Positions 54,462 to 63,262 of a stretch of 64,000 nt of DNA are shown here, piece by piece. Under the pieces are notes generated by a model. That model worked only from the letters and a program-made list of their open reading frames with translations. It was not told where the DNA came from and ran no database searches. Numbering within the stretch: the stretch's first letter is position 1; each line of letters opens with the position of its first letter. The translations under genes were made by a program, and so were the position numbers. Origin of the DNA: Escherichia phage PHB12. The stretch lies in sequence record MK524178.1; one strand, given 5' to 3'.

Positions 54462-54469
54462 TATTTATA
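54462..54469 (-). promoter_or_regulatory. late promoter TATAAATA upstream of 53880..54437
   Basis: gTATAAATAtccttgtaaactaagagaggatatATG. Confidence 0.55.
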
Positions 54470-62284: not shown

Positions 62285-62769
62285 ATATACGCTTTCCAAG
62301 TTCCTGTTTTAAATGTTGAGATTACGCGTTTCGCGCGATTAGGTGTCTGACGATACCATTTAGATTGGGCTAGATTTACTGCCGCTTCGTCCCAACGTTT
62401 CTGTTGAAGCATACGAAGAGAATTAGTAAAACCAGCGACGCCTGCTACACCCATTTGGAAGACCATATTGACCAATGCACATCGACGAACTGCATCTAAA
62501 GAATCATATACCGGTTTAAGTTTAGCATTACCCAAGATTCCGCGAACGGCTTTATCAACGTCTTCATTAAATAGCTTTTCAGCCTCATCAAGGGTAATTG
62601 TACCGTTGCATTTACGTCCGATCATTCTGTCAAGTTCAGCTTTAGCTACGGCTAAAGACGGGTTCTTTGTTACTAAATGGCCTATGCCAATCGTCCAAAA
62701 GCCTTCAGTGTCTTTGTATAAAGACAGTCTAAGACCTTCGTCATTACGAAGCATTTCAAATATATTCAT
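62281..62769 (-). CDS. e: lysozyme (endolysin)
   Basis: [32 protein letters not shown]... near-identical to T4 lysozyme; catalytic E11, D20, T26 conserved. Confidence 0.9.
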
Positions 62770-62772
62770 AAT

Positions 62773-62794
62773 ACCTCCCACGTTTATAGGAGGT
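62773..62794 (-). promoter_or_regulatory. lysozyme RBS-sequestering hairpin with late-promoter-like box in loop
   Basis: Minus strand ACCTCC-TATAAACGTG-GGAGGT-ATT-ATG; downstream arm is the RBS. Confidence 0.6.
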
Positions 62795-62803
62795 ATTTAT
62801 TAC

Positions 62804-63262
62804 TTATAAGAGGGTAGTGAGCACCTTATATAATGATTTGCCCATTACATATTCCCATTGAGAAGGTTTAATTAAAGCGAATGCATCAAATTCAGGAATC
62901 TGTCGTCCATCCGGGAACGTATGATAGGAATTACAAACACTGTTTCTGAATTGCTCGTGCTCTACAGGGATGGTATATAAGAACAGATGAATATTCTTAT
63001 TGTCTGAGTAATGATGTTCACCTAGGTCTTTCAGGAAGGCAGGGTCATATTGTGTAAACCCAGTTTCTTCTTCGCATTCACGAATAGCGGCTTCGATAGG
63101 AGATTCACCGGGCTCGACACGACCTTTAGGAATATCCCACCGATGAGCTAATGCACCTTTAGGACGAGAACCAGTTACACGGCCCATGAATAACTCTTTA
63201 TCTTCGGTAAGGAAAATAATACCGGCTGATAGTTCTTTCACTTTATTTTTCTTACTCATCAT
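62804..63262 (-). CDS. nudE: Nudix hydrolase
   Basis: 152 aa; Nudix box GRVEPGESPIEAAIRECEEETGF. Confidence 0.85.
   Translation of the reverse strand: MMSKKNKVKELSAGIIFLTEDKELFMGRVTGSRPKGALAHRWDIPKGRVEPGESPIEAAIRECEEETGFTQYDPAFLKDLGEHHYSDNKNIHLFLYTIPVEHEQFRNSVCNSYHTFPDGRQIPEFDAFALIKPSQWEYVMGKSLYKVLTTLL

Follow-up and report, generated by a model that had tools for sequence, protein, structure and literature searches.

Gene e, nudE and the leader between them

The 64-kb window (the whole stretch of phage DNA analysed here; GC content 37%) is from a Mosigvirus and is 98% identical to RB69. It carries a lysozyme gene, e, downstream of the Nudix hydrolase gene nudE, and the features of these genes and of the leader between them are collected in Table 1. 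The product of the downstream gene is 83% identical to T4 e and has a PF00959 domain, its neighbour has a NUDIX domain and the gene order is shared with both T4 and RB69, which identifies the gene as the T4 e orthologue in its nudE-e context. The 1.1-kb nudE-e region shows 98% nucleotide identity to RB69 and to approximately 150 other Mosigvirus genomes, in which the two genes are annotated as nudE and e. In the list of open reading frames, nudE and e are tightly packed on the same strand, and the hairpin in the e leader begins 7 nt downstream of the nudE stop codon (62806-62804). An in silico terminator scan found no terminator-like site in the nudE-e interval; by this in silico measure, early transcription could continue into e without meeting an intervening terminator, and early read-through RNAs would enter e from nudE.

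In the RB69 GenBank record (AY303349), e is annotated from the second ATG of the reading frame (MLRNDEG...), at 65673 as opposed to the upstream 65688 (L002 2047 vs 2032; window 62754 vs 62769). The upstream ATG is favoured by its Shine-Dalgarno (SD) spacing, GGAGG-N4-ATG, and by alignment with T4 (MNIFEML...), while the annotated RB69 start has no SD. The e leader element fixes the true e start codon in RB69-type genomes.

Table 1. Positions in the window of gene e, nudE, the elements of the e leader and other leaders with a potential RBS-masking stem
Feature	Position	Strand	Basis or remark
Gene e, T4-type endolysin, 162 aa	62281..62769	minus	ATG 62769..62767; Pfam PF00959; 83% identity to T4 e over 161 aa
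nudE (Nudix hydrolase) gene	62804..63262	minus	ORF list; Pfam NUDIX PF00293, E = 2e-16; synteny with RB69 and T4
Hairpin 5' arm AAUACCUCCUAU	62786..62797	minus	MFE and centroid structures; SD-anchored pair table
Anti-SD CCUCC	62793..62789	minus	Corresponds to -5..-1 of the upstream late promoter
Tetraloop AAAC	62782..62785	minus	Folding
Hairpin 3' arm GUGGGAGGUAUU, containing SD GGAGG (62778..62774)	62770..62781	minus	Folding; pair table
AATAAATA, proposed functional gp55-type late promoter, A(-13) variant of TATAAATA	62794..62801	minus	Sequence, conservation
Predicted late transcription start (+1)	62788	minus	From box at -13 to -6 (PMC1524935); 62787 (A) equally possible
TATAAACG, loop box; positional homologue of T4 proximal TATAAATA, degenerate at -7 and -6	62781..62788	minus	T4 leader alignment
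soc leader	box 12136, ATG 12097	minus	Late box, then RBS-masking stem; RBS-opening rank 8th
Gene 49 leader	box 44066, ATG 44029	minus	Late box, then RBS-masking stem; RBS-opening rank 9th
Leader with late box	box 54469, ATG 54437	minus	Late box, then RBS-masking stem
Leader with AATAAATA	box 54841, ATG 54807	minus	A(-13) box, then RBS-masking stem
Early-promoter anti-SD cassettes, -35-like GTTTAC	62001 (denV), 60273, 58089, 53835, 40226, 17446, 17012, 4816	minus	

The RBS-masking hairpin

On the minus strand the leader reads ...CTCTTATAAGTAATAAATACCTCCTATAAACGTGGGAGGTATTATGAATATATTT..., with ACCTCC (62794-62789), TATAAACGTG (62788-62779), GGAGGT (62778-62773), ATT and ATG (62769-62767) in that order. 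Local folding of the leader gives a hairpin (62797..62770, minus strand) with a 12-bp stem, a 4-nt loop and a free energy of -16.3 kcal/mol, and its 101-nt context has a z-score of -3.1 against dinucleotide shuffles. When an early RNA spanning -80..+33 was folded computationally, the probability that the SD is unpaired was 0.000. Opening the e RBS (-12..+3) was computed to cost 16.8 kcal/mol, which ranks third among the 86 heuristically called gene starts of the window (median 4.5 kcal/mol). In an RNA initiated upstream, the SD is thus computed to be paired with its upstream complement, as expected of a translational timing element. An earlier sequence-only reading of this locus had quoted the minus-strand string ACCTCC-TATAAACGTG-GGAGGT-ATT-ATG upstream of a lysozyme gene, paired its GGAGG with the upstream CCTCC and likened the arrangement to the regulation of T4 e. 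The string is exact, the pairing is borne out by the stem energy and the rank of the opening cost, the gene is the T4 e orthologue by identity, domain and nudE-e synteny, and a comparison with the T4 leader (below) shows a leader design that agrees with that of T4 e (PMC3014915).

Perfect 9-bp hairpins with loops of 3-12 nt occur 11 times (at 8 loci) in the 64 kb, compared with 4.4 times in shuffled sequences, and among them the e leader hairpin sits exactly on an SD. We judge it unlikely that a 9-bp hairpin in precisely this position arose by chance, and conservation is decisive on this point. A search of Rfam 15 with E-values up to 1 found no covariance-model match in 62500..63100.

To follow the leader in other phages, a protein-guided scan of viral contigs was used, which recovered 54 lysozyme loci; the T4-like loci (lysozyme identity down to approximately 60%), together with T4 and the window, comprise 17 distinct leaders. 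The SD is folded into a stem in all 17 (-7.5 to -16.6 kcal/mol), and its sequestration is kept in all of the 16-18 distinct T4-like e leaders, the number depending on the comparison. A column-wise covariation count on the MAFFT alignment was dropped, as the register of the 5' arm differs from lineage to lineage; an SD-anchored pair table was used instead and shows a paired GGAG core in all 16 variants. One stem change is fully compensatory (U-A to C-G in L023), and G-U changes are seen in T4, L013 and L021/L022. As the SD is itself constrained, the support from covariation is thin. The auxiliary pairs are lineage-specific: T4- and RB69-types lengthen the stem toward the AUG (GUAUU with AAUAC) and L012-L020 types lengthen it toward the loop (GAUA with UAUC). 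The 76-nt e leader matches 660 phage records. The more distant lysozyme loci (L026-L041) have neither box nor hairpin, or have them differently arranged, which agrees with the phages described in the review of Uzan and Miller as having a gene e but no apparent structure.

Two further observations were made in other viral contigs. At one distant lysozyme homologue (L041, approximately 1150-1200; 49% identity), a terminator-like hairpin with a T-run, GGAGACTTCGGTCTCCTTTTTTTTT, directly precedes AGGAGAAAATATG, with no RBS-masking stem, and the GGAGACTTCGGTCTCC hairpin of this locus is also found upstream of late boxes in RB69 (sites 89887 and 154320). Separately, the layout of ATAAATA, CCTYC, a short loop and GGAGGTATTATG occurs upstream of non-lysozyme genes in IMG/VR contigs (L064/L074, L066/L068 and L067), the products of which start MSAATERQENV..., MWLYNETEF... 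and MSEENKVV...; the e-type leader design seems to have been reused, or to have arisen convergently, in other viral contigs.

A hairpin between two genes could also be an intrinsic terminator or attenuator for nudE, with the SD pairing incidental. In the RB69-like phage vB_EcoM_G2285 (MK327933.1 66563-66586; L077 606-629) a "putative transcriptional terminator, -12.00" is annotated exactly on the stem, and promoter-plus-stem-loop cassettes of T4-type phages attenuate transcription (PMC2839356). We consider this explanation very improbable for three reasons. First, the stem is followed by AUGAAUAUAU, which contains no U-tract, and the consensus terminator scan does not call the stem; where a G+C-rich stem followed by a U-tract was sought at the hairpin, no Rho-independent terminator was found. 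Second, T4 early RNA demonstrably runs into e (PMC3014915). Third, the stem involves the SD in every lineage while the other pairs vary, and this constancy of the SD amid changing pairs argues for selection on RBS masking. The terminator reading was rejected on the missing U-tract, the negative scan and the T4 read-through; the MK327933 annotation is probably an automatic mis-call, and the e leader hairpin should not carry a terminator annotation.

The e leader is not the only one in the window in which a stem covers an RBS. Four sister leaders (soc, gene 49 and those with boxes at 54469 and 54841) have a late box ahead of a stem that masks the RBS, which costs 8-10.7 kcal/mol to open. Two of them, soc and gene 49, are known from T4, and the other two appear, from RB69 coordinates, to lie in the rI region. 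A second type of arrangement is associated with early-type promoters (GTTTAC with a -10-like box). In 8 of 27 of these, the -35 hexamer is immediately followed by an anti-SD arm (e.g. TTCTCCTCTGGTT) that pairs with the SD of the downstream gene. The resulting stems are up to 14 bp long (-10 to -24 kcal/mol). As both the -10 box and the start site lie inside the stem, transcripts initiated at the promoter itself would be missing the 5' arm, whereas in transcripts reading through from upstream the RBS would be masked. Among the RBS-opening costs of the window, leaders of this type take ranks 1, 2, 4 and 5, and GTTTACTTCTCC occurs 4 times against 0.23 expected. These cassettes are similar to the promoter-early stem-loop (PeSL) cassettes of Arbiol et al. 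2010 (PMC2839356), for which a role as terminators and recombination sites, and not as RBS masks, was proposed.

Late-promoter boxes in the e leader

Two boxes in the leader resemble the late consensus TATAAATA: AATAAATA, the last four bases of which (AAUA) form the outer part of the hairpin 5' arm, and the loop box TATAAACG. The upstream box is the better conserved. The heptamer ATAAATA is invariant directly 5' of the anti-SD in all 17 leader variants, and ATAAATAC is invariant in the leader alignment, where the base before it varies between T, A and G and the anti-SD always follows directly; it is kept beside the anti-SD even in L012-L020, where it lies outside the stem.

The single deviation of AATAAATA from the consensus is a familiar one. 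Of 50 T4 late promoters that have been listed, 32 are perfect, 9 have A(-13), nearly all of the others have a single deviation and 2 have a double deviation (PMC2988020). No other natural late-promoter variant is as common as A(-13) (PMC2988020; PMC1524935), and A or T often occupies position -13 in RB69 as well as in other T4-like phages (PMC1524935), though caution has been advised as to how strong A(-13) promoters are, relative to others, in vivo (PMC2988020). Among the 31 late promoters predicted in RB69 (Nolan 2006), 4 are AATAAATA and none deviates at both -7 and -6. That HMM scan of RB69 did not list a late promoter upstream of e among its 31; the AATAAATA site at e scored below the threshold of the HMM of Nolan et al., and the list neither confirms nor contradicts the upstream box.

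The use of each box type in RB69 (L057-L060) was estimated by counting the sites that are followed, within 8-75 nt, by an SD and an ATG opening an ORF of 60 aa or more. Such a gene start follows 15 of 26 TATAAATA sites and 7 of 15 AATAAATA sites, compared with 32 of 342 sites for the other single-mismatch variants pooled; the gene-preceding AATAAATA sites include those of e, rI, inh and gene 15. In the window, AATAAATA occurs only twice on the minus strand and exact TATAAATA five times, always on the minus strand. The annotators of Yersinia phage fPS-90 likewise mark only the upstream box as a late promoter.

The geometry of the distal box is also that of a promoter whose transcripts would escape the hairpin. 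CCUCC occupies -5..-1 and the predicted +1, a T, falls at 62788, just past CCUCC, placing the start 3' of the anti-SD. The predicted late RNA, 5'-UAUAAACGUGGGAGGUAUUAUG, retains the SD and lacks the anti-SD. If the true start were a few bases upstream of 62788, part of the anti-SD would be retained.

The sequence-only reading had instead assigned the late promoter to the loop, with transcripts starting inside the hairpin and being translatable. The box it described, TATAAACG, is present as written and is the positional homologue of an exact proximal TATAAATA in T4, for which two late promoters of e are reported (PMC3014915); it retains the first six consensus bases, and variant late promoters are usable in vitro and some of them in vivo (PMC2988020). 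A working promoter at this box, with late RNAs starting further downstream, nevertheless strikes us as improbable. TATAAACG matches the consensus at only 6 of 8 positions, and because 1.1% of all positions in this AT-rich window reach a match of at least 6/8 (approximately 11 per kb per strand), the resemblance is not significant by itself. Its deviations are at -7 and -6; double deviations are limited to 2 of the 50 T4 sites and are absent from the 31 predicted RB69 sites. By the count described above, 3 of 14 TATAAACG occurrences in RB69 precede a gene start, with e itself counted, which is not clearly above the 32/342 background (approximately 9%). Furthermore, its +1 would be 62775, inside GGAGG, yielding an RNA (5'-GGUAUUAUG) with no usable SD.

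The loop is also poorly conserved. T4-types alone have an exact TATAAATA there, and several lineages have unrelated loops (TATACTCA, TATCAATT and TATTAGAG); outside the T4-type and RB69-type phages the loop box is not conserved, and most lineages have no second box. What is conserved in most lineages is TAT after the anti-SD, which coincides with the start region of the distal promoter. With a 6/8 match and a +1 inside the SD, a second, proximal late promoter of the kind present in T4 was not found in this leader. TATAAACG is best read as a degenerate homologue of the T4 proximal late promoter combined with the conserved A/T-rich start region of the upstream promoter.

Taking together its conservation, the T4 literature, the predicted RB69 sites, the genome-wide usage in RB69 and the geometry, the operative late promoter is most likely to be AATAAATA, overlapping the hairpin 5' arm, and not the look-alike in the loop. 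The earlier reading was right to expect that late RNAs initiated within the hairpin would be open to translation; its choice of promoter was probably wrong, and the upstream AATAAATA had gone unmentioned. Late starts upstream of both arms are predicted by neither box.

The constant position of the box bears on one more explanation, in which the main role of the hairpin lies in RNA processing or stability, for example as protection of the SD's GGAG against the RegB endoribonuclease or as a 5' or 3' stabiliser, and late relief does not come through promoter position. RegB cleaves GGAG in SD regions of T4 early mRNAs (PMC3014915), regB is present in RB69 and the e SD is GGAGG. However, RegB is not tied to e by any evidence, and the invariant juxtaposition of late box and anti-SD in all lineages fits relief by promoter position and not a processing role. 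As the main function we therefore hold this to be quite implausible; shielding from RegB might at most be an addition to relief by promoter position.

Proposed timing of e expression and comparison with known leaders

We think it likely, from the combined analyses, that the e leader is the RB69-type version of the translational timing device of T4 gene e. In the early phase of infection, transcription from early promoters further upstream would run through nudE and yield RNA with both arms, in which the 12-bp hairpin would bury the SD, exclude the 30S subunit and prevent premature lysozyme synthesis. Late in infection, RNA polymerase with gp55 would initiate at AATAAATA, the -5..-1 region of which is the anti-SD. 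The late RNA, beginning at about 62788, would lack the anti-SD, leaving the SD open and lysozyme translated. We infer all three steps for the RB69-type phage, with the experimental proof coming from T4 only.

The computed energetics are consistent with this scheme. The RBS-opening cost falls from 16.8 kcal/mol in the early RNA to 6.7 kcal/mol in RNA from 62788, a drop of approximately 10 kcal/mol; in T4 it falls from 13.6 to 4.0 kcal/mol with a start at the distal +1, and the means over 18 leader variants are 14.1 kcal/mol (early) and 5.3 kcal/mol (late). The residual 6.7 kcal/mol is above the window median of 4.5 kcal/mol because GGAGGUAUU pairs weakly with e codons 5-8 (AAAUGCUUC). In the predicted late RNA, the SD region 62778..62770 can pair with 62748..62740 (minus strand; MFE -7.8 kcal/mol). 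This pairing is not present in T4, where the codons differ (AUGUUAC), and it may be coincidental. One could speculate that in Mosigvirus the proximal e late promoter has been lost and the hairpin tightened (an anti-SD that is all Watson-Crick, 12 bp), leaving late lysozyme dependent on a single A(-13) promoter whose RNA partly masks its own SD through codons 5-8. We regard this as a doubtful proposition; if true, the lysozyme programme would differ quantitatively from that of T4, being later or lower. Less likely still, TATAAACG might be a weak late promoter whose e mRNA would lack an SD and be nearly leaderless.

In T4, as the work of McPheeters 1986 is summarized in PMC3014915, early RNAs extending into e form an inhibitory structure and yield approximately 100-fold less lysozyme, while late e RNAs from either of two late promoters have no 5' strand, have their 5' ends inside the hairpin and are translated. 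The same review (Uzan and Miller 2010) describes closely related T4-type phages with similar e leaders, each with a T4-type late promoter in the region of the 5' strand (Fig. 5A; PMC3014915). RB69 is presumably among the phages in that figure, as it appears in none of the three lists in the legend (identical to T4, no structure, no e gene). Our comparison of 17 variants reproduces the statement of Uzan and Miller on related leaders. Since the mechanism was shown in T4 (McPheeters 1986) and its conservation in T4-type phages has been described (Uzan and Miller 2010), the e leader element is already known, in principle for the RB69-type group too. It accounts for lysozyme not being made from early read-through RNA, and its significance beyond correct annotation is small. 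A useful correction is the position of the promoter, an A(-13) box over the 5' arm, with the late 5' end expected at 62788 of the window (65707 of RB69).

The T4 leader reads TTT-TATAAATA-CCTTC-TATAAATA-CTTA-GGAGG-TATT-ATG and contains two exact late boxes. It shares with the leader described here the orthologous gene, the nudE-e synteny, the SD and its spacing (GGAGGTATTATG), the outer stem (AAUAC/GUAUU), an anti-SD directly 3' of a late box and a predicted late start just past the anti-SD. The two differ in several respects. In place of two exact TATAAATA boxes, the present leader has a distal AATAAATA and a proximal box decayed to TATAAACG, which is 2 nt closer to the SD than the T4 proximal box. 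Its anti-SD is CCUCC, with Watson-Crick pairs throughout, whereas that of T4 is CCUUC, with one G-U pair; its hairpin has 12 bp, a 4-nt loop and -16.3 kcal/mol, compared with 11 bp, an 8-nt loop and -13.3 kcal/mol in T4. The T4 soc, gene 49 and I-TevI leaders are similar in having a late promoter within an RBS-masking structure, but they belong to different genes and have different arm sequences, and the soc stem covers the AUG region and not a GGAGG core.
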